Shown here: positions 3,177 to 53,006 of the stretch, in pieces
Layout: the number at the start of each line of letters is the position of its first letter
Position numbering within the stretch: position 1 is the first letter of the stretch
NCBI GenBank assembly: GCA_035283225.1
Contig: DATEUG010000011.1
Span: forward strand, 1 to 54,743
DNA from: Patescibacteria group bacterium
GTDB lineage: Bacteria; Patescibacteriota; Microgenomatia; UBA1400; CG1-02-47-37
Direction: 5' to 3'
Length of the DNA stretch: 54,743 nt
Notes under the pieces: generated by a model
What the model saw: only the letters and a program-made list of their open reading frames with translations
What the model was told of the DNA's origin: nothing
The model's database searches: none
Translations under genes and position numbers: made by a program

Positions 3177-4337
3177 CTATCGATTAACCAAAAGCACCGC
3201 GTTGGGAAGGTTTCTGCCCGGCCCGGCTTTGTAGCCGCCGGAATACAAAGCGGTCGAGCCGCCATCGTCAAGATTTAAAGCATGAGTTAAGCCTAAAGCT
3301 TTTAAGGCGTAAGCGGCTTCAGCCACAGTGGCGTTGTGAACCACACCAATATAAACCGTTGAGCCGTTAACCCCGACAAAGCTTCTGCCGCCTTTACTGC
3401 CTTGCTTGGGATCATCGCCGCCGGTAAAAGTAATGCTGCCGCCGGAGAGTAACAAGGGATAATTAGCAATAACTGCATCCACACCTGTGTCCCGGCCCCA
3501 CTCTAAAGATTGACCGACAAAGCGGGCTGAGTTGCCGGAGAAAATCACCGCCGGGACAGTCGAGTAAACGTTGTTGTCGGAATTAAAATAAACTTTGTTT
3601 TTATTCATAAGCAGGGTGTCAAAAGAGTTGGTTTTGCCGACACAAGACGGGTATGACGCCGGGCAAAAGTAAGAGCCGTTAACCCCGGCAAAAGCGCCGC
3701 TCCTACCGACATAATCAGCCAGTGACAACACCGGGCAGTTGTCACGGCAATCACCGTCTGAAGCCGTATCAATAATCACTTTGGCCGAGTTTAAATCGGC
3801 CGCCACCAGGCTGACGGTGTAGGGACCGATTGCAGTAGATACCACCTGGCGGCTGTAACCGGCTCCCGGCGGCGTGTTTGACTGGGGTAAGTTAGCTGTA
3901 TCCGGCACGGCTAATGACCCGGCTTTTGGTTTTAAATCAGCCAGGGAGGCATTGAATAATTTGATCTCGGCCGAAGCCGAAGCATAATTAACATCAGCCA
4001 AATAGCTTAAAATTTTGGCTAGGTTAGGTGCCAGTTTTTTGGTGTCAATGCCGCTGTCAGTTAAATCAAGGTAAGTTTCATAAGCTTTAACCGTTGCATC
4101 GAAAGTGGTTTTAACCGCAGAAATCGACGCTTCTAGAGACTGATTAATCAAATACTCGTCGCGGGATTTAAAAACATCAAGTTCGGCCGAAGTTTCAACC
4201 AGCCGTTTATTGGTCTTAGCGACTTTTTTATCGGCGACAAGTTTAACAAAAACGGCTCCGGCAACGCTTAAGCCGATGAGTACTACTGCCGCTGCTATCG
4301 GGGCGATTTTTTTAAAGTTATTAGGCAGAAACTTCAT
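3177..4337 (-). CDS. Membrane-anchored phosphodiester glycosidase-family (NAGPA/DUF2233-like) protein
   Basis: N-terminal TM helix (IAPIAAAVVLIGLSVAGAVFV). The C-terminal domain has GVNGSYF, VGVNGSTVYIGVV and ALNLDDGGSTALY, typical of this family. Start set to ATG 4337 (MKFLPNN). Confidence 0.6.
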   Translation of the reverse strand: MKFLPNNFKKIAPIAAAVVLIGLSVAGAVFVKLVADKKVAKTNKRLVETSAELDVFKSRDEYLINQSLEASISAVKTTFDATVKAYETYLDLTDSGIDTKKLAPNLAKILSYLADVNYASASAEIKLFNASLADLKPKAGSLAVPDTANLPQSNTPPGAGYSRQVVSTAIGPYTVSLVAADLNSAKVIIDTASDGDCRDNCPVLSLADYVGRSGAFAGVNGSYFCPASYPSCVGKTNSFDTLLMNKNKVYFNSDNNVYSTVPAVIFSGNSARFVGQSLEWGRDTGVDAVIANYPLLLSGGSITFTGGDDPKQGSKGGRSFVGVNGSTVYIGVVHNATVAEAAYALKALGLTHALNLDDGGSTALYSGGYKAGPGRNLPNAVLLVNR

Positions 4338-12872: not shown

Positions 12873-13679
12873 TTGTCTTTGGTGTCTGCCCGACAGCTAG
12901 GGAAATATTTGGTTTTAGGCGCCTTTGCTGGCGCATTTTTTTTATTGCCCCCTCCCGCTCACGCTCAAGTGGCCATTAATGAAATTCTGGCTAACCCTGT
13001 TAATGAAGACGACGAGTTTATTGAACTTTATAATACCGGCGACCAGGCCGTCGACATCACCGGTTATAAAGTCAGCGATTTGGTCAAAACTTACACTCTG
13101 CCGGAAGCCACCATCAGCGCCAAATCATTTTTTCTGCTGACAAAATTGATCACCAATTTACAGCTGAATAATTCCGGTGAAGAGAAAGTCACTTTAAAAA
13201 ATGCCGCTGACGCCATCATTGACAGTTTCTCCTACGACGGTACGAATGAAGGCACTTCTTTCTCCCGCTACCCTGACGGCGGCGGCGGCTGGAACAGTGC
13301 TACCGTAATTACCCAAAACGCCCCTAATCAAGCGCCGCCCAGTCCGACGCCAACACCGTCACCGACACCCACGCCCTCTCCCACTCCCTCGACTTCGCTC
13401 GGGACTAGTAGCCCAATTCCCACCCCTTCGACTAGCGCTCAGGGCTCTAGTCCGACGCCAACACCTAAAGCTTCTCCTAAAACCTCTCCTTCCTCCTCAC
13501 CAATAGCAACCCCTTCTGCCGTTTCCGAAGTACTAGGAGCCAACAGTTCCAGTCAATCAGCCGCCGGCTTAGGCGTTTGGCCGGCTTGGATATTAATCGG
13601 CTTGGGAGGAACCTTAATAGCTGTCAGCGGCGGATTTATTGCGTATAATCAGTTTTATGCCGCTAAACCGAAAATTTAA
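12873..13679 (+). CDS. Lamin-tail-domain (LTD) surface protein with Pro/Thr/Ser linker and C-terminal TM anchor
   Basis: LTD signature VAINEILANPVNEDDEFIELYNTGDQAVDITGYKVSD, a PSPTPTPSPTPTPSPTPS linker, and C-terminal TM WILIGLGGTLIAVSGGFIAY. The start (TTG 12873) is uncertain. Confidence 0.7.
   Translation: MSLVSARQLGKYLVLGAFAGAFFLLPPPAHAQVAINEILANPVNEDDEFIELYNTGDQAVDITGYKVSDLVKTYTLPEATISAKSFFLLTKLITNLQLNNSGEEKVTLKNAADAIIDSFSYDGTNEGTSFSRYPDGGGGWNSATVITQNAPNQAPPSPTPTPSPTPTPSPTPSTSLGTSSPIPTPSTSAQGSSPTPTPKASPKTSPSSSPIATPSAVSEVLGANSSSQSAAGLGVWPAWILIGLGGTLIAVSGGFIAYNQFYAAKPKI
13385..13407 (+). repeat. Family-B dispersed motif copy inside the LTD-protein linker
   Basis: TCCCTCGACTTCGCTCGGGACTA is identical over 23 nt to 19864-19886. 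Translated as PSTSLGTS. Confidence 0.7.
13424..13445 (+). repeat. Family-B dispersed motif, second copy inside the LTD-protein linker
   Basis: CCCTTCGACTAGCGCTCAGGGC, translated as PSTSAQGS. Confidence 0.45.
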
Positions 13680-14025: not shown

Positions 14026-14945
14026 AAGTTTTAGTTACCGGAGGCTCAGGCTATATTGGCGCGGTCACGCTCAAGGCATTGGCCGCCGCCGGCTTTGAGC
14101 CTATAAATTTTGATTTAAAACAAGGCAATGATATTCGCAACAAACAGCAAGTGTTAGCTATCCTTAAAGATAGTCAAATCGGGGCAGTGATGCATTTTGC
14201 CGCTTTCATCTCCATGGGCGAATCAATGATTAACCCTTTTAAATACTTTGACAATAATGTCCATGGCTCGCTTGAGCTTTTACAAGCCATGGTTGAAGCA
14301 AAAGTTAATAAACTGATTTTCTCTTCTTCCGCCGGCGTTTACGGCCATCCTGTCAGTGTGCCGATTAAAGAAACTGATCCGACCAACCCCACCAATCCAT
14401 ACGGCCAAAGCAAATTAATGGTGGAGCAAATGCTTAACTGGTATGACAAAATTCATCAATTAAAATCTATCGCCATCCGCTACTTTAACGCTGCCGGAGC
14501 TGATAAAGATTTGGGGGAAACCCACCAGCCGGAAAGCCATCTGATTCCCAATGTGATTGCTGCTGCCGCAGCCAAAAAACAGTTTAAACTTTTTGGTGAC
14601 GACTATCCCACGCCTGACGGCAGCTGCGTCCGCGACTATATCCACGTTTCAGACCTGGCCGAAGCTCACCTCTTAACCTTAAAAGCTTTAATTGACGGTC
14701 ATAAAAGTGATGTTTATAACGCTGGTACCGGTAAAGGCTATTCCAACAAAGAAGTGATCAGTATGGTGGAAAAAATCTCGGGTAAAAAAATTGACGTTAA
14801 AGTTGAACCGCGCCGGCCGGGCGACACCAAAGAATTAGTCGCCGATTCCAGTAAACTCCAAAAAGAATTTAATTGGCAGCCGAAAAAATCTGACCTTAAA
14901 ACTATCGTTGAGTCTGCCTACGCCTATCACACCTCTAAGGTGTGA
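14022..14945 (+). CDS. galE: UDP-glucose 4-epimerase
   Basis: NAD-binding VLVTGGSGYIG, catalytic YGQSK (YxxxK), and the RYFNAAGA motif. Confidence 0.9.
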   Translation: MKVLVTGGSGYIGAVTLKALAAAGFEPINFDLKQGNDIRNKQQVLAILKDSQIGAVMHFAAFISMGESMINPFKYFDNNVHGSLELLQAMVEAKVNKLIFSSSAGVYGHPVSVPIKETDPTNPTNPYGQSKLMVEQMLNWYDKIHQLKSIAIRYFNAAGADKDLGETHQPESHLIPNVIAAAAAKKQFKLFGDDYPTPDGSCVRDYIHVSDLAEAHLLTLKALIDGHKSDVYNAGTGKGYSNKEVISMVEKISGKKIDVKVEPRRPGDTKELVADSSKLQKEFNWQPKKSDLKTIVESAYAYHTSKV

Positions 14946-14948
14946 TTT
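14923..14948 (+). repeat. Degenerate copy of the CTATCACAC...GTGTGAT hairpin repeat (REP-like), overlapping the galE stop
   Basis: CCTATCACACCTCTAAGGTGTGATTT has an 8-bp stem ATCACACC/GGTGTGAT. Its CCTATCACAC 5' arm and GTGTGATTTA 3' flank match the copy at 16079. It supplies the last galE codons and the TGA, and is followed by TTTATTT. Confidence 0.6.
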
Positions 14949-15050
14949 ATTTGACAAAAATAGGCCAGTCTATTAAACTCAAAATTGAGGTAGCGTGAAT
15001 GGGACTTGATCCCGACCAGGTTACGCGAGGTCGCAAAAGCCTGAGACACT

Positions 15051-15425
15051 TTATCTCAAAACGATTACAGACAGGAAATTTTTTTTCCTGTCTTTTTTCT
15101 TGCTTGAAAGAATCACCTTAATTCGCTTTCCTTCCATTTCTGCAACCAATGAGTAAAAATGCAAACCATGCTCATAACGATATTCTTGATAAGTGGTTGC
15201 CTTTTTAATTAATTTTTTAGCCAATGGCAATGCCTTAAACCGACGAATTTTCTCTACTTTTGTCCTAAATCTTGAACCAACTAAATGATGCCAACCAACT
15301 CTTGTAACTAAAATTTCTTGGTTAAACGCCGGACAAAATGTCTTTTCTTTTCGCCACTGATGATAATAACTTTTTGCCCAATTTTTAACTTTGATATACT
15401 TACTTTTTCTGTTAACTTTTCCCAT
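15051..15425 (-). CDS. Hypothetical basic protein of unrecognised family, in an AT-rich islet
   Basis: 124-aa ORF, Lys/Arg-rich. Sample lines hand-counted give about 30-38% GC, against about 45% in the flanks. No motif I can assign. Confidence 0.5.
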   Translation of the reverse strand: MGKVNRKSKYIKVKNWAKSYYHQWRKEKTFCPAFNQEILVTRVGWHHLVGSRFRTKVEKIRRFKALPLAKKLIKKATTYQEYRYEHGLHFYSLVAEMEGKRIKVILSSKKKDRKKNFLSVIVLR

Positions 15426-15480
15426 CAGCTACCCTTTAATATCATAGAATGATGCCAATTAAATTGCTACAATCATAACC

Positions 15481-15896
15481 GTGAATAAAGTCTTTGGTTT
15501 TGAAGACACAATTAACTGGTACGAGCGCAATGCCAAAAAATACGCTAAAGCGATTGCCCGTACCACCTATCCGGAGATTAAGTTTGTTGAGGGTAATTTT
15601 TTAAACCTGCCTTTTGCCGATCAATCATTTGACGGGATTTGGGCTCACGCTTCACTTTTACACCTGGAAACCGTTAAAGCAGTAGAAAAAAAGCATTGGC
15701 TGAATTCAACCGTGTTTTAAAACCCCAGGGAGTTATCCATGTGGCAGTCAAGAAACAGCCTGGCGATAAAAAAACTGAGCTTGAAAAACTACTAATAGAG
15801 GCAGGGTTTACCATTGAAGACATTACTGATACTTACGTTGACCGAGGCGGTCGCAGTGAAGTAACCTGGGTCGTGGCTTTGGCACGAAAAAAGTAA
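15481..15896 (+). pseudogene. Decayed class I SAM methyltransferase (frameshift plus internal deletions)
   Basis: Two adjacent ORFs (15481-15720 and 15696-15896) together carry the post-I to C-terminal methyltransferase motifs (FLNLPFADQSFDGIWAHASLLH, then AEFNRVLKPQGVIHV). The frame breaks at the A-run near 15686-15695, and the GxGxG SAM-binding segment is missing. Confidence 0.65.
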
Positions 15897-15915
15897 AACG
15901 TGTTAAACTCATCAC

Positions 15916-16068
15916 ATGGGCAAAAATATTAAACTTAAAGACAAAAAATTGCCAACTTTTCCCATGAGCCAAAAGATGGAAAAAAGGGCTCTTCAAGCCT
16001 TGAAAGACTATCGTGAGGGGAAAGTAAAAAAATTTAAATCCGTTGATGCGCTGATGAGCTCAATATGA
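15916..16068 (+). CDS. Small 50-aa ORF, possibly an orphan antitoxin-like remnant
   Basis: ATG 15916 to TGA 16068, below the ORF-track cutoff. The C-terminal ALKDYREGKVKKFKSVDALMSSI loosely resembles C-termini of small antitoxin/DNA-binding proteins. Weak. Confidence 0.25.
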   Translation: MGKNIKLKDKKLPTFPMSQKMEKRALQALKDYREGKVKKFKSVDALMSSI

Positions 16069-16078
16069 ATTTATTTAC

Positions 16079-16102
16079 CCTATCACACACCGGGTGTGTG
16101 AT
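16079..16102 (+). repeat. REP-like hairpin repeat, full copy
   Basis: CCTATCACACACCGGGTGTGTGAT has a 9-bp stem ATCACACAC/GTGTGTGAT and a CGG loop. The 22-nt core is identical to the copies at 46819 and 47546. It lies 5 nt upstream of the yidC ATG. Confidence 0.85.
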
Positions 16103-29045: not shown

Positions 29046-29116
29046 TGCCGGATCATCTAATGGCAGGATGTGACACTCTGAATGTCATCATCTAGGTTCG
29101 AATCCTAGTCCGGCAA
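29046..29116 (+). tRNA. tRNA-Gln (anticodon CUG), no encoded CCA
   Basis: Manual cloverleaf fold. Acceptor TGCCGGA/TCCGGCA (U1-A72), D-stem ATCT/GGAT, anticodon stem TGACA/TGTCA with loop CTCTGAA (anticodon CTG), 4-nt variable loop, T-arm CTAGG-TTCGAAT-CCTAG, discriminator A. The next bases are CAAG. Confidence 0.85.
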
Positions 29117-45449: not shown

Positions 45450-46817
45450 ATGGAAGTGACCTTACCTCCCCTAGTAATTAAAGTGTTGTCTGTTTTGGAA
45501 AAAGCCGATTGCCAGGCTTATGTTGTCGGCGGGGCGGTGCGGGATATGCTGATGAATAAACCGGTAACCGATTGGGATTTTGCCACTGCCGCCAAACCGG
45601 AAACGATCGTTAAGTTATTTAAAGACGCTTTTTATGATAACCGCTTCGGCACCGTCGGTATTGCTGAAAAACATTTGGGGGGCAAGGGTGACGGGGTGAT
45701 GGAGATTACTACCTTTCGGACCGAATCAGGCTATTCTGACAAAAGACGACCGGATAAAGTTGAGTTTGCCGACAGTTTAAACGAAGATCTGCAAAGACGG
45801 GATTTTACCATTAACGCTATGGCTTTAAGGGTGCTTACCTACACTCAAGGGAAAGCCGAGATCGAAATAATTGATCCGTTCGGCGGGCAGGAAGATTTAA
45901 AGAAAAAACAAATTAAAGCGGTCGGCAATCCGGATCAGCGCTTCCAAGAAGATGCTTTACGTTTAATGCGGGCAATTAGAATCGGCGCCGAACTGGGATT
46001 TTCAATCGAGGCCAAGACGCTTAAAGCCATGGCTAAAAACGCGGCTTTAATTAACGACATTGCCAAGGAAAGAGTGCGGGATGAGCTAATAAAAATTATC
46101 GCTTCTAAGTTTCCCAAAGATGGAATTACCCTGCTTTTTACCTCAGGACTTTTGGAGCACATTTTGCCCGAGCTAATCACTACTCGAGGAGTGACCCAAG
46201 CCGGCCACCACACTAAAGATGTTTGGGATCACAGCCTGGATTCGCTGGCTGGCTGTCCTTCACCCGAACCAATTGTCAGATTGGCTACGCTTTTACATGA
46301 TATCGGCAAACCGGCATCCAAAAAAAATCTCGGCCGCGGCAAAGAGATTACTTTTTACAATCACGAGGTAATCGGCGCCAGGATGGTAAAGGCAATTGCC
46401 CGGCGCTTAAAGTTTTCCAAAAAAGAAATTGATTTATTGTGGTTACTCACCCGCTGGCACATGTTTGCCTATGAACCAAAAATGACTGACAAGGCGATTC
46501 GCCGCTTCATCCGCCGGGTGGAGATTGTTAACATCGATAAAATGATGATGTTAAGAGTCGGTGACCGGATTGGCGGCGGCAGTAAAGCCACTTCCTGGAG
46601 ATTGCAGGAATTAAGGCGACGGATTGACGAGGTGCTTCAGACCCCAATGCAGATTAACGATTTAAAGGTTAATGGCCATGACGTGATGAAATTGTTGAAT
46701 TTACCGGCGGGGCCAAAAGTGGGTCAAATTTTAAACAAGTTATTTGAGGAAGTAATGGAAGACGCTAAGAAAAACGACCGGGACTATTTATTAAAACGAA
46801 TAAAAGAAATCTTTTAG
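45450..46817 (+). CDS. cca: CCA-adding tRNA nucleotidyltransferase with HD domain
   Basis: The class II polymerase-beta head has GGAVRD and RRDFTINAM. HD domain has LLHDIGKP. Confidence 0.9.
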   Translation: MEVTLPPLVIKVLSVLEKADCQAYVVGGAVRDMLMNKPVTDWDFATAAKPETIVKLFKDAFYDNRFGTVGIAEKHLGGKGDGVMEITTFRTESGYSDKRRPDKVEFADSLNEDLQRRDFTINAMALRVLTYTQGKAEIEIIDPFGGQEDLKKKQIKAVGNPDQRFQEDALRLMRAIRIGAELGFSIEAKTLKAMAKNAALINDIAKERVRDELIKIIASKFPKDGITLLFTSGLLEHILPELITTRGVTQAGHHTKDVWDHSLDSLAGCPSPEPIVRLATLLHDIGKPASKKNLGRGKEITFYNHEVIGARMVKAIARRLKFSKKEIDLLWLLTRWHMFAYEPKMTDKAIRRFIRRVEIVNIDKMMMLRVGDRIGGGSKATSWRLQELRRRIDEVLQTPMQINDLKVNGHDVMKLLNLPAGPKVGQILNKLFEEVMEDAKKNDRDYLLKRIKEIF

Positions 46818-46841
46818 CCTATCACACACCGGGTGTGTGAT
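46818..46841 (+). repeat. REP-like hairpin repeat, full copy
   Basis: CCTATCACACACCGGGTGTGTGAT. Starts directly after the cca stop and ends 4 nt from the transposase stop codon. Confidence 0.85.
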
Positions 46842-46845
46842 CTAA

Positions 46846-47535
46846 CTACTCGCCTTCTGGATTTTCAAGCATCACATGCTTAATCATTGATAGTTCCCTT
46901 TGATATTCTGCTTCGTTAGAAATAAATTCATCGTAGCTTCCGGAATTTCTAAAATAATCAAGAATAATATCTTTTTGGCAAATTTTATTTTGATTTATTC
47001 CTAAGTATTCTGGTAATGAAGAATAAGAATATTCTTGCAATTCTTCCATAGATTTGACAATGCCGGCACTATAAGGATTAAGATGAATATAACGGGAGGT
47101 GTGCAATAATTGTTGTTCTGTTTCGATTCTTATCGATTTAAATCTGCCTTGGAAAATTGGTCCAATTCTTTTGTTTTTGACATTAAAGTAATGCGTATAA
47201 CTTTCAGAAAATCTACGCATGAATTCTGAAATACCATTATCGGTTGTTTGCTTTAATAAAAAATGGAAATGATTCGGCATTAAGCAGTAACAAATTATTT
47301 CTACAAAGAATTTTTGCAATTGATCTAACTTTAATAAAGTTTCCGACTTAACTGATTGCGGCAAGCGAGAAAAGTAAGAATAGCGAATTGGGGGTCTTTG
47401 ATGTCTGTAGTAAAAAACAGCTTCTAAGAAACGATGGTGATAACGATCATCAAGAAAAATTGGCATAGAGGCAACTCCGCGATTAACTATGTGATAAATT
47501 TCACCTGTAACTAAGGGGTCTTTTCTAACGGGCAT
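46846..47535 (-). CDS. IS200/IS605-type Y1 (HUH) transposase-like protein, RAYT-like
   Basis: YHIVNRG, HUH motif CYCLMPNHFHFLLK, GPIFQGRFKS, and catalytic-Tyr motif SRYIHLNPYSAGIV. Start set at ATG 47535 (MPVRKD). Confidence 0.85.
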   Translation of the reverse strand: MPVRKDPLVTGEIYHIVNRGVASMPIFLDDRYHHRFLEAVFYYRHQRPPIRYSYFSRLPQSVKSETLLKLDQLQKFFVEIICYCLMPNHFHFLLKQTTDNGISEFMRRFSESYTHYFNVKNKRIGPIFQGRFKSIRIETEQQLLHTSRYIHLNPYSAGIVKSMEELQEYSYSSLPEYLGINQNKICQKDIILDYFRNSGSYDEFISNEAEYQRELSMIKHVMLENPEGE

Positions 47536-47544
47536 TAGCTTTAA

Positions 47545-47567
47545 TCTATCACACACCGGGTGTGTGA
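47545..47567 (+). repeat. REP-like hairpin repeat, full copy
   Basis: TCTATCACACACCGGGTGTGTGA, 10 nt upstream of the transposase ATG. Same orientation as the other copies. Confidence 0.85.
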
Positions 47568-47574
47568 ATGAGTA

Positions 47575-48447
47575 CTAGCGCTTCTTATTTATTAAGTTTT
47601 CCCAGACTACCAGAAGCGGCGCGGCGGTAAAGGTGCTCGAATAGGTACCGGTGATGGTACCGATAAGTAAAGCAAAAATAAACCAACGAATGGTTTCTCC
47701 GCCCAGTAAAAATAAAGCTAATAACATAAAGATAATTGTTAAGGAATTATTGATCGACCGGGTTAGGGTTTGATTGATTGAGCGATTAACCACTTCACCA
47801 TAAGATAAGTGAGGTTCGTTATTTAAGGTTTCCCTGATTCTGTCATAAACCACAATCGTGTCGTGCACTGAAAAAGATAAGATGGTTAAGACCGCTGTTA
47901 CCAGCAAAGAGTCGGCTTGAGCCCCGAAGTAAACGCTGGCGATGCTGTAAGTACCGATTAAAATCAAGGTGTCGTGAAGCATGGCTAAGACCGCACAGAT
48001 GCCGTACTTTTTATCTTTAAACCGGATCGCCACATAGACCAAAATAAAACCGGCAGCCAGGATTATTCCGATAATGGTTTTTTTGATTAATTCTTGCCCC
48101 AAGGTCGGACCAACGCTGGAAAACCTTTTTTCCTCAACTGGCCCAAGCTGATCAGCCAAATCCTGCTGGAGCTTAACGCTTGACGCCTGATCCAGTTTTT
48201 GCGCCCGAATAATAAAACTGTTAACCCCACTTTGCTGAACCGTTGTCCCGGGCAGTTTTGCCTGCGCTACCTCGTTTAAGGCCGCCTGTGACACCGCGCC
48301 GCCGGTAAATCTAAGCTCCAGTAAAGCTCCCCCGGTAAAGTCGGCCGACGGATTTAAACCATAGCGAATTAAAAAATAACTTGAAGGCAAGATCACTAAA
48401 AGTGATAAAAGAAAATAGATGGTTCTGTATTTAATAAAGTTAATCAT
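47575..48447 (-). CDS. secF: Protein translocase subunit SecF
   Basis: 6-TM SecF profile (FTGGALLEL, HDTLILIG, and the IVVYDRIRE motif). Overlaps the secD stop. Confidence 0.9.
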   Translation of the reverse strand: MINFIKYRTIYFLLSLLVILPSSYFLIRYGLNPSADFTGGALLELRFTGGAVSQAALNEVAQAKLPGTTVQQSGVNSFIIRAQKLDQASSVKLQQDLADQLGPVEEKRFSSVGPTLGQELIKKTIIGIILAAGFILVYVAIRFKDKKYGICAVLAMLHDTLILIGTYSIASVYFGAQADSLLVTAVLTILSFSVHDTIVVYDRIRETLNNEPHLSYGEVVNRSINQTLTRSINNSLTIIFMLLALFLLGGETIRWFIFALLIGTITGTYSSTFTAAPLLVVWENLINKKR

Positions 48448-51471: not shown

Positions 51472-51922
51472 CTTTGATTGCTTTGATTTCTTCTTTGCTT
51501 AATTCATGACCCGAGGCCCGCCCGTTTTTAACCGTTTTGGCATAAAATCGGGTGGTGTCCCGCGAGTGTAAAGAGCTTAGCACAAAACCAGTGTCGGTTT
51601 CATCTAGTAAACTTAAAACAAAACTCTGATCGCCGCCGGTCGCGGGAAAGGGATTAAACCTGACAAAACCAACCTTCTGGATGTGATGCGTGCTTTTGGC
51701 CTGCAACTGGTTTAAGTGCTTGATCAAATCGGCCATTTTCTGAGTTTGCTCATCACTCCGGTTTAATAACATGGTCAAGATGGTTTTTAAATCCTTTTTG
51801 GCAATATTTTGGGTCAGACGCTGATAATGAAGCATCATTTGAATCAACAAAATGGTGATAATGATCAGCCACACCAAAACCGCAATAGTCAAAATTGAAA
51901 GCAAACTTAAATCGAGAGACAT
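51461..51922 (-). CDS. DUF4446-family membrane-anchored protein
   Basis: TM anchor plus GFVRFNPFPATGGDQSFVLSLLDETDTGFVLSSLHSRD, typical of DUF4446, from memory. Confidence 0.65.
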   Translation of the reverse strand: MSLDLSLLSILTIAVLVWLIIITILLIQMMLHYQRLTQNIAKKDLKTILTMLLNRSDEQTQKMADLIKHLNQLQAKSTHHIQKVGFVRFNPFPATGGDQSFVLSLLDETDTGFVLSSLHSRDTTRFYAKTVKNGRASGHELSKEEIKAIKDAQ

Positions 51923-51929
51923 TATTTAA

Positions 51930-53006
51930 TTATACCAATAACTTTCCTGCCGCCAATACCGGCCGGCCATTGACTAAAACCTTTGATTCTTTTGCCGTCA
52001 TTGTCTTAACCAAGTCCCAGTGAAGCGATGACTGGTTTTTGCCGCCACCGTCTTTTAGATCGGGATAGCTACTGCCTAAAGCCATATGAATAGTGCCGCC
52101 GATTTTTTCGTCAAATAAGGTATTAAGCATCGGCCGCTTGATGCCGTAATTAGCGCCGATGGCAAATTCGCCCAGACGCTTAGCGCCGGCGTCGCTTGCT
52201 AAAGCCGCTTTTAAGTAGCGCTCGCCCTTGGCTGCAGTGGCTTTTACCACCCGACCGGCTCTAAAAGTTAATCGAACCTTCTCCACCACATTGCCGGACC
52301 TTAGCGAAGGCAAGTCAAAATAAACTTCGCCGTCTACTTTTGACTCAACCGGTGCCGAAAAGATTTCACCGTCAGGCAGGTTAAACTTACCGTCGCAAAT
52401 GGCAAAATAGCGATTAGTAAAACTTAAAGTTAAATGTGTTTGCGGGCCAATCACTTCAATCTTTTTAGCATTATCCAGCCGTCTTTTAAGGTTGGTTAAC
52501 TTTCGGCCCACGGCCGGCCAATCCTGGAGACAGGCTTTGAAATAAAGTTCCTCCAGCTGGCTTAACGACAAGCCTGCCGTTTGAGCCATGGATAATGACG
52601 GATACTCGGTTAGCACCCAAGGTTTTTTAAGCATGATTTTTTTAACCGGCTCTTGGGCCTTAGCCGCCTGCATTAAACGTTTGGGGTCAATCGATTTAAG
52701 TTCGCTGTTATTATTTGCCGAAAACAAGCGGATAAATTTATCTGCCCATTGGGCTAAAAATAAACCAATTTCCGGTTTTTTATTCAGCTGCGCCTGGCTG
52801 GCATTTTTAAAGAAAAAATAATCTAAGTCCCCGGGCGAAAAAATTAAGTGCGGAAAGGCTCCAACCAATAAACAGCGCTGGTAAACCGCTTGGGCTAAAG
52901 GTTTGGCGGCTTCGTTAGCCGAAATCAGGACTTTATCGCCCTTTTTTACCGCTACCGAATAGTCAGCTAAAATCCGGGCCAATTTAACATCGTTAGGGTG
53001 AATCAT
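51930..53006 (-). CDS. M29-family aminopeptidase (AmpS/PepS-like)
   Basis: LARILADYSV, EFAIGANYGI, GGTIHMALGSSY and HWDLV motifs. Confidence 0.8.
   Translation of the reverse strand: MIHPNDVKLARILADYSVAVKKGDKVLISANEAAKPLAQAVYQRCLLVGAFPHLIFSPGDLDYFFFKNASQAQLNKKPEIGLFLAQWADKFIRLFSANNNSELKSIDPKRLMQAAKAQEPVKKIMLKKPWVLTEYPSLSMAQTAGLSLSQLEELYFKACLQDWPAVGRKLTNLKRRLDNAKKIEVIGPQTHLTLSFTNRYFAICDGKFNLPDGEIFSAPVESKVDGEVYFDLPSLRSGNVVEKVRLTFRAGRVVKATAAKGERYLKAALASDAGAKRLGEFAIGANYGIKRPMLNTLFDEKIGGTIHMALGSSYPDLKDGGGKNQSSLHWDLVKTMTAKESKVLVNGRPVLAAGKLLV

Follow-up and report, generated by a model that had tools for sequence, protein, structure and literature searches.

The closest described relatives of the system reported here go by three names for one and the same group: TIRYT/TIRtron (TIR, terminal inverted repeat) (Di Nocera et al. 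2013, PMC3733652), TnpA_Y1 subclass 2.1 (Quentin et al. 2018, PMC6006769), and Group 1 of the REP-associated tyrosine transposases (RAYTs; REP, repetitive extragenic palindrome) (Bertels et al. 2017, PMC5581495). RAYT-like genes whose flanks carry low-copy, sometimes self-complementary repeats other than GTAG-tagged ones are a concept of the first of these works, where TIRtron repeats are described as 'moderately abundant' and sometimes self-complementary (PMC3733652), and for the 16-mers next to Group 1 genes a count of about 12 per replicon was reported (PMC5581495). Proteins of subclass 2.1 carry the motifs NH[YF]H, FQ, Y[IV]HLNP and SS at a median length of about 238 amino acids (aa) (PMC6006769, Table 1). 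Here, we analyzed a stretch of 54,743 nucleotides (nt) from a Patescibacteria group bacterium (GenBank assembly GCA_035283225.1, contig DATEUG010000011.1, positions 1 to 54,743), hereafter called the window, in which a Y1/HUH gene lies between secF and cca and is bracketed by two copies of the same hairpin. It is likely that this is a resident gene for a RAYT-like Y1/HUH nuclease of single-stranded DNA (ssDNA) together with its cognate palindromic hairpins, a REPtron/TIRtron-type system of Group 1/subclass 2.1 in Beckwithbacteria (Patescibacteria). The features concerned are the following, the two neighboring genes being identified by the Pfam labels of their orthologues:

46846..47535, minus strand: Y1/HUH gene, 229 aa, RAYT-like (class 2), with HUH residues H89/H91, catalytic tyrosine Y149 and SS motif S172/S173
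47546..47567, plus strand: type-A hairpin upstream of the Y1 gene, exact match, stem of 8 bp, loop CGG on the plus strand; ssDNA fold −7.3 kcal/mol, z −3.9; with 10 nt to the Y1 ATG and 7 nt from the preceding secF stop codon
46819..46840, plus strand: type-A hairpin downstream of the Y1 gene, exact match, 5 nt past the Y1 stop codon and 1 nt past that of the convergent cca; ssDNA fold −8.2 kcal/mol, z −5.0
16080..16101, plus strand: solo type-A hairpin within the 39-nt gap before yidC, at the right edge of a variable islet
14923..14948, plus strand: type-B hairpin CCTATCACACCTCTAAGGTGTGAT, overlapping the last codons and the stop of galE, at the left edge of the islet
45450-46817, plus strand: gene of the CCA-adding enzyme (cca)
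47575-48447, minus strand: secF

The module is tightly packed, with all spacers in the order cca, hairpin, Y1 gene, hairpin and secF measuring 1-10 nt, and the ATG of the Y1 gene at 47535 is supported by the N-terminus M-P-x-R, which is invariant across the family. The 22-mer CTATCACACACCGGGTGTGTGA occurs in three exact copies in the window (16080-16101, 46819-46840 and 47546-47567), all on the plus strand, with a chance expectation of 0.00 matches in dinucleotide-preserving shuffles of the window. An earlier note, made from the letters of this DNA alone, had already reported the three copies as well as the position between cca and secF, and both hold, as does the distance of 10 nt to the start codon; the distance to the stop codon had been given as 4 nt and is 5 nt. 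The stem of 9 bp described there applies to the copies at 16080 and 46819, where a ninth pair (A-T) is present, whereas the copy at 47546 lacks this pair, and the invariant part of the type-A stem is 8 bp (TCACACAC/GTGTGTGA) around a 3-nt loop. Likewise, the copies do share one orientation, but the hairpin is a near-perfect palindrome, and its direction is set only by the central loop base (CGG versus CCG) and the 5' CTA. The variant at 14923-14948 had been noted as a degenerate copy. The copy is real, but it is a second conserved hairpin subtype (type B) with a 9-bp stem (ATCACACCT/AGGTGTGAT), a CTA loop and the same geometry as type A, and it recurs as an exact match in another genome (L002, L006; loci of relatives are given by such numbers throughout). 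As ssDNA, the hairpin copies fold into stem-loops of −7.3 to −8.4 kcal/mol with z-scores of −3.8 to −5.3.

With regard to the protein, the Pfam profile Y1_Tnp (PF01797) matches the window protein with 34.7 bits (cut-off 23) and was found in 25/25 family members tested. The NCBIfam profile NF047646 (REP_Tyr_transpos) is the sole substantial NCBIfam match for the window protein and all 25 relatives, with a best E-value of 4e-17. The closest entry of the Protein Data Bank by sequence is E. coli TnpA_REP (4ER8), in which H59, H61 and Y115 take the places of H89, H91 and Y149; the HUH motif and catalytic tyrosine recognized at first reading are therefore confirmed, and together with the SS residues they are invariant in two family alignments. 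An AlphaFold2 model of the protein (pLDDT 89, pTM 0.85) again gave 4ER8 as the top Foldseek match (E-value 2e-7, TM score of 0.75 on the target), and the transposases of IS608, ISDra2 and IS200 scored about four orders of magnitude worse in this structure search. The tyrosine motif RYIHLNP is of the class-2 form Y---NP, with Y149, N153 and P154 invariant or nearly so in the family alignments. Compared by eye with the published list (PMC6006769, Table 1), the motifs NHFH (NHFHFLL), FQ (IFQGRF), YIHLNP and SS (YSYSSLPEY) and the length of 229 aa fit the second motif set of subclass 2.1. On motifs and length, the protein is thus best filed with the Group 1/subclass 2.1/TIRYT type, as what would be a new lineage in Patescibacteria, a phylum not mentioned as a host by Quentin et al. 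(PMC6006769). The family is large: a word-index search returned 2,496 relatives, a profile search 1,293 full-length representatives at 50% identity (E-value up to 1e-30), and a metagenome scan at least 590 loci. In a viral contig collection, the only relative was a remote one at 30% identity, and a phage origin of the gene was rejected on this ground.

The bracketing by hairpins is a family-wide trait, and the hairpin sequence co-varies with the Y1 lineage, as known for RAYTs and their REPs. Among the metagenomic relatives with enough flank, 57/72 share a word of at least 12 nt between their upstream and downstream flanks, usually a perfect hairpin, compared to 10/300 when flanks from different loci were paired as a control. 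Perfect hairpins matched on both sides of the gene in 38 loci, and all 38 sequences differ from one another, while the apex ..ACC-loop-GGT.. is kept in 30 of them. The bases flanking the hairpin often lengthen the stem by complementary changes (cta/tag, aca/tgt, ggca/tgcc). Even within one Gottesmanbacteria metagenome-assembled genome (MAG), two Y1 paralogues of 40% identity are flanked by different hairpins. The hairpins of a pair are direct in 18 and inverted in 10 of the 38 loci, depending on the lineage, which differs from TnpA_REP, and the loop base is flipped between Amesbacteria and Beckwithbacteria; a fixed orientation of the hairpin relative to the gene is ruled out by these observations. 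One could also regard the hairpins as regulatory or structural elements of the host, such as terminators, mRNA stabilizers or the site of a dimeric protein binding double-stranded DNA, with the Y1 gene nearby by accident. Copies do lie at gene ends, some of them between convergent genes, and a near-perfect palindrome would suit a dimeric protein of this kind. However, the hairpin sequence changes with the Y1 lineage and yet stays identical on both sides of the gene, which is not expected of an unrelated host signal, and we regard this explanation as scarcely credible. Two specific candidates were dismissed separately: an intrinsic terminator, as the hairpins lack a T-tract and a terminator scan of 46300-48000 found none, and a known RNA family, as the sole Rfam match in the window is a transfer RNA (tRNA).

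Away from the gene, the hairpins form a low-abundance repetitive extragenic palindrome family. The exact 19-mer is present in 3-13 copies per genome in several Microgenomates genomes and MAGs, with approximately 13 copies in the Amesbacteria MEXE01, 7 in JAHJSD01, 4 in the Gottesmanbacteria PFMK01 and 3 in the complete genome CP011210 (1.05 Mb). Of 57 hairpin copies, 49 lie outside open reading frames (ORFs) of at least 120 aa, whereas 80% of random positions fall inside such frames; contigs labelled Gammaproteobacteria/Pseudomonadales and one Oligoflexales contig were treated as mis-binned and left out of this count. Solo extragenic copies are found across several genomes. The proliferation of the repeat, which the earlier note had suggested, is weak, as the window contains 2 solo hairpins in its 54.7 kb and distant relatives carry about 0.02 solo copies per kb. 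Copy numbers of 3-13 per genome fit both the counts of the 16-mers flanking Group 1 genes (PMC5581495) and the repeats of TIRtrons (PMC3733652). Several MAG contigs (L053, L040, L045, L019) end at a hairpin copy or a few hundred bases from one, as if the repeat breaks short-read assembly, so that hairpin and Y1 counts from MAGs are lower bounds. Regarding the contigs with deviating labels, L029, L033 and L017 (GTDB records labelled Pseudomonadales or Gammaproteobacteria) encode proteins up to 78% identical to those of the window, with values as low as 30% in L033, and probably stem from the candidate phylum, having been mis-binned into MAGs of Proteobacteria. In the MAG JAHJSD01 (L022, L032, L043, L044, L049), the element is much longer, the 19-nt hairpin being the tip of a palindrome that spans about 59 nt (ATTCCCGAGGTGTCAACCTA-hairpin-TAGGTTGACACCTCGGGAAT). 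In the CP011210-type genome, several hairpins stand next to GGGGTGGGG or the complement of this sequence (L002 3770-3785; L056 5294-5305 and 6748-6762), a G-rich motif that departs from the consensus GGGGWSAS published for TIRs.

The gene itself is a resident gene and not a hopping insertion sequence. In all 21 contigs read that encode the exact Y1 protein, which come from many samples, the context is secD-secF-Y1-cca. Orthologues at 69-72% identity (L001, L002-L006) occupy the same junction of secF and cca and carry the identical 19-nt hairpin on both sides, although the proportion of synonymous differences (pS) between these pairs is 0.62-0.79 and hence saturated. As a non-coding hairpin of 19-22 nt remains identical over such divergence, the hairpin itself is under constraint. 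The ratio of nonsynonymous to synonymous divergence (dN/dS) of 0.05-0.13 indicates strong purifying selection on the gene, and its dN is lower than that of the adjacent secF.

These data bear directly on the possibility that the unit of 749 bp, hairpin-tnpA-hairpin, is an autonomous IS200-like insertion sequence that moves with a strong target preference, with solo hairpins as excision scars or miniature derivatives. Similarities to IS200/IS605 elements such as IS200, IS608 and ISDra2 lie in the Y1/HUH fold, the subterminal hairpins on both sides, the upstream hairpin adjoining the start codon and the unit length of about 0.7 kb, which is near that of IS200; in addition, both ends share strand and orientation. 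The module is moreover an indel at the secF-cca junction that is missing in sister lineages (100% and 97% bootstrap pairs, see below), and its site differs by class (Amesbacteria carry it after uvrA, Gottesmanbacteria in the midst of toxin-antitoxin genes); only 1/80 distant relatives follows secF. The AT-rich interior noticed in the earlier note was also confirmed, with a GC content of 0.33 in the gene versus 0.45 for the remaining window, and the Y1 gene is AT-richer than its surroundings in 54/55 loci (median difference −6.9 GC points), including loci where it has seemingly resided for long. On the other hand, an ordinary multi-copy IS200 is contradicted by the single context in all 21 contigs and by the lack of a second identical copy of the unit in any locus examined. 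The tyrosine motif is Y---NP and not the Y---Q of IS200 (PMC6006769, Table 1), the NCBIfam IS200 profile is weakly matched by just 2/25 family members, no tnpB lies next to the gene, and left and right hairpin do not differ from each other, unlike those of IS200/IS605 elements. Furthermore, the divergence between syntenic orthologues, which evolve under strong purifying selection, is similar to that of host genes, and viral contigs are nearly free of the family. An insertion sequence of this type is therefore considered unlikely. No recent mobility was seen, the arrangement being the same in all 21 contigs with the exact Y1 protein and the 6 contigs with the exact YidC.

On a longer timescale, the module has been gained or lost at this fixed junction, for which four states were found. 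In L157 and L158, secF and cca overlap and no hairpin is present. L156 has a single solo related hairpin, CCTATCACGTTC-CCG-GAACGTGATA, in which foot and loop are the same as in type A and the upper stem is changed with compensation. L159 carries a PaaX-like gene, and the fourth state is the hairpin-Y1-hairpin arrangement of the window, L001 and L002. A neighbor-joining tree of SecD, SecF and Cca recovers two pairs, the window and L156 with a bootstrap value of 100%, and L001 and L158 with one of 97%. As the tree pairs carriers with non-carriers, presence and absence are interleaved, which corresponds to approximately three losses or approximately three gains at one site. A deletion that joins the two flanking direct repeats would produce the state of L156, with exactly one hairpin remaining. 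In this last locus, secF reads through the solo hairpin (3872-3900) to a later stop, and in the window the end of galE (..AYHTSKV*) runs into the type-B hairpin (14922-14945). Since the hairpins encode the last codons of these genes, their insertion or loss rewrites protein C-termini. In L159, units of about 12-14 nt (CAACTAATCAGC...) are repeated in tandem at 3880-3960, between secF and the PaaX-like gene.

A second variable place in the window lies between galE and yidC:

14949..16079, no strand assigned: hairpin-bounded islet from galE to yidC, with an orphan 124-aa ORF (minus strand), a frameshifted methyltransferase and a 50-aa ORF

The islet is bounded by the type-B hairpin on its left and the solo type-A hairpin on its right, which have similar flanks (CCTA...TTTA). 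Its methyltransferase (Methyltransf_11/25) is split over the overlapping frames 15481-15720 and 15696-15896, the same split was called in five contigs of the population, and it is probably a frameshifted pseudogene. These observations give rise to a further explanation, in which the Y1 enzyme or repeat recombination by the host inserts and deletes small cassettes at the hairpins, including the cassette with the Y1 gene, in an integron-like manner with an HUH enzyme. The content of the galE-yidC junction does vary, as L155 is empty except for a relic of a hairpin foot, L154 contains a RidA gene, and in L153 two identical hairpin repeats of 31 nt enclose a 57-aa ORF. In L002, a block of about 1.6 kb consisting of an EamA gene between a type-A and a type-B hairpin and two small ORFs is located at the M29-DUF4446 junction and is missing from the window and L001; L024, L018 and L056 likewise have genes between hairpin pairs, and at secF-cca the solo related hairpin of L156 stands where the window has the whole module. 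However, in a gene-dense genome any intergenic repeat will bracket genes, and no cassette turned up in a second, different context bounded by hairpins. Some empty sites are also hairpin-free, among them the M29-DUF4446 junction of the window (51922-51930) and the junctions in L157, L158 and L154, and in L001 only one side of the toxin-antitoxin insert is marked by a hairpin. A cassette model for every site is ruled out by the hairpin-free M29-DUF4446 junction, the one-sided insert of L001 and the clean junctions of L157, L158 and L154, and cassette exchange as the general explanation of the system is very doubtful. The related proposal, that the hairpins are recombination sites at which the conserved Y1 nuclease inserts, deletes or swaps small accessory cassettes including its own gene at fixed core-gene junctions, as an HUH counterpart of integron exchange, is also quite unlikely. 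Pairs resembling toxin-antitoxin systems (HigB/HigA-type; AbiEii-like by eye) adjoin hairpins or the Y1 module in L001 (10772-11378), L010 (85-1610) and L056 (5460-6352).

For better comparison, the resident RAYT-like gene with cognate hairpins that we favor can be set against the two described systems nearest to it. With TIRYT/subclass 2.1/Group 1, it shares the motif set and a length of about 230-240 aa, the low gene copy number, and flanking repeats in small families that lack GTAG and are capable of self-complementarity. The short, perfect hairpins with their conserved apex (..CACC-loop-GGTG..) differ from the GGGGWSAS-type inverted repeats of TIRtrons. With the REPtron of E. coli, namely TnpA_REP/RayT with its REPs and bacterial interspersed mosaic elements (REP/BIME; 4ER8, subclass 2.2, Group 2), it has in common the HUH and tyrosine residues, the Y---NP motif and the best match in both sequence and fold, as well as a gene bracketed by presumed cognate hairpins, extragenic solo copies and vertical inheritance in a single context.

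Nevertheless, several points speak against our interpretation. The window protein reaches 60.5 bits with the NCBIfam RAYT equivalog NF047646 and stays below the cut-off of 80 bits, and it is about 65 residues longer than TnpA_REP. The hairpins lack the GT[AG]G tag of canonical REPs, and at their foot one strand reads (C)CTA and the other TAG. At the positions of TnpA_REP that contact the GTAG tag (residues listed in PMC6006769), the alignment with 4ER8 gives W94F, E100S, H101I and R104E, so that most are replaced and only Q95 is kept. Counted as exact copies, the hairpins are very few for a REP family, with units to tens per genome compared to hundreds in E. coli. No REP-like sequences were reported near the genes of subclass 2.1 (Quentin et al. 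2018, PMC6006769), and the C-terminal helix-turn-helix (HTH) domain of that subclass (Bac_DnaA_C, HTH_23, HTH_28) gave no Pfam match at E-values up to 1 in the 25 members. Neither the 21 contigs encoding the exact Y1 protein nor the 6 encoding the exact YidC showed hairpin polymorphism within the population. The AT-richness of the gene could reflect recurrent horizontal arrival, and amino-acid bias, low expression or repeated replacement are further possible causes. Finally, we infer the binding, cleavage and mobilization of the hairpins by the Y1 protein only from fold, motifs and anatomy. With respect to the C-terminus, a DnaA-like or HTH domain was not found in the Pfam scan of the window protein and the 25 members, and the AlphaFold2 model has short helices and one long helix at 200-224 in this part. 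The REP/RAYT system claimed in the earlier note therefore stands with regard to the closeness to TnpA_REP, the cognate hairpins and the single context, but it fails at the 80-bit cut-off and the GT[AG]G tag; considering also the low hairpin copy number, this is not a canonical RAYT.

Based on fold, motifs and anatomy, a working mechanism can be proposed. The hairpins would extrude on ssDNA, and the Y1 protein would bind the folded stem, as TnpA_REP does in 4ER8. Cleavage would occur beside the stem by means of the HUH-bound metal and Tyr149 and proceed via a 5'-phosphotyrosyl intermediate, from which ends could be rejoined. Occasional copying, deletion or movement of hairpins and of hairpin-bounded DNA could result, with an enzyme that would act rarely and on a handful of hairpins. 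IS200 stem-loops damp expression. The upstream hairpin, 10 nt from the ATG and thus at the place expected for a ribosome-binding site, may act on the Y1 gene in the same way.

Altogether, this is a real system of a known kind, the semi-domesticated type of mobile DNA, in a new host group. No description of such a system in candidate-phyla bacteria was found in the literature, and one preprint mentions a K07491 match in an archaeon. The streamlined host of the candidate phyla radiation that had been presumed from the letters alone corresponds to a Patescibacteria/Beckwithbacteria-type genome. The host role of RAYT-type enzymes is unsettled. The present family lives in genomes of about 1 Mb, and with a gene that evolves more slowly than secF and a handful of hairpins per genome, the targets of the enzyme and the reason for its retention can be addressed much more simply here than in E. 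coli or Pseudomonas with their hundreds of REPs. The pairing of gene and hairpin is hereby extended to motif class 2.1/Group 1, reported so far without REP-like partners, and the core-gene junctions secF-cca and galE-yidC provide places to follow the gain and loss of hairpin-bounded DNA.

Two further features of the window were recorded. A tRNA gene is located at 29046-29116. A Pro/Thr/Ser-rich repeat with a period of 12 nt occupies 13329-13498 inside a 268-aa ORF (12873-13679), the orthologues of which carry an LTD domain.

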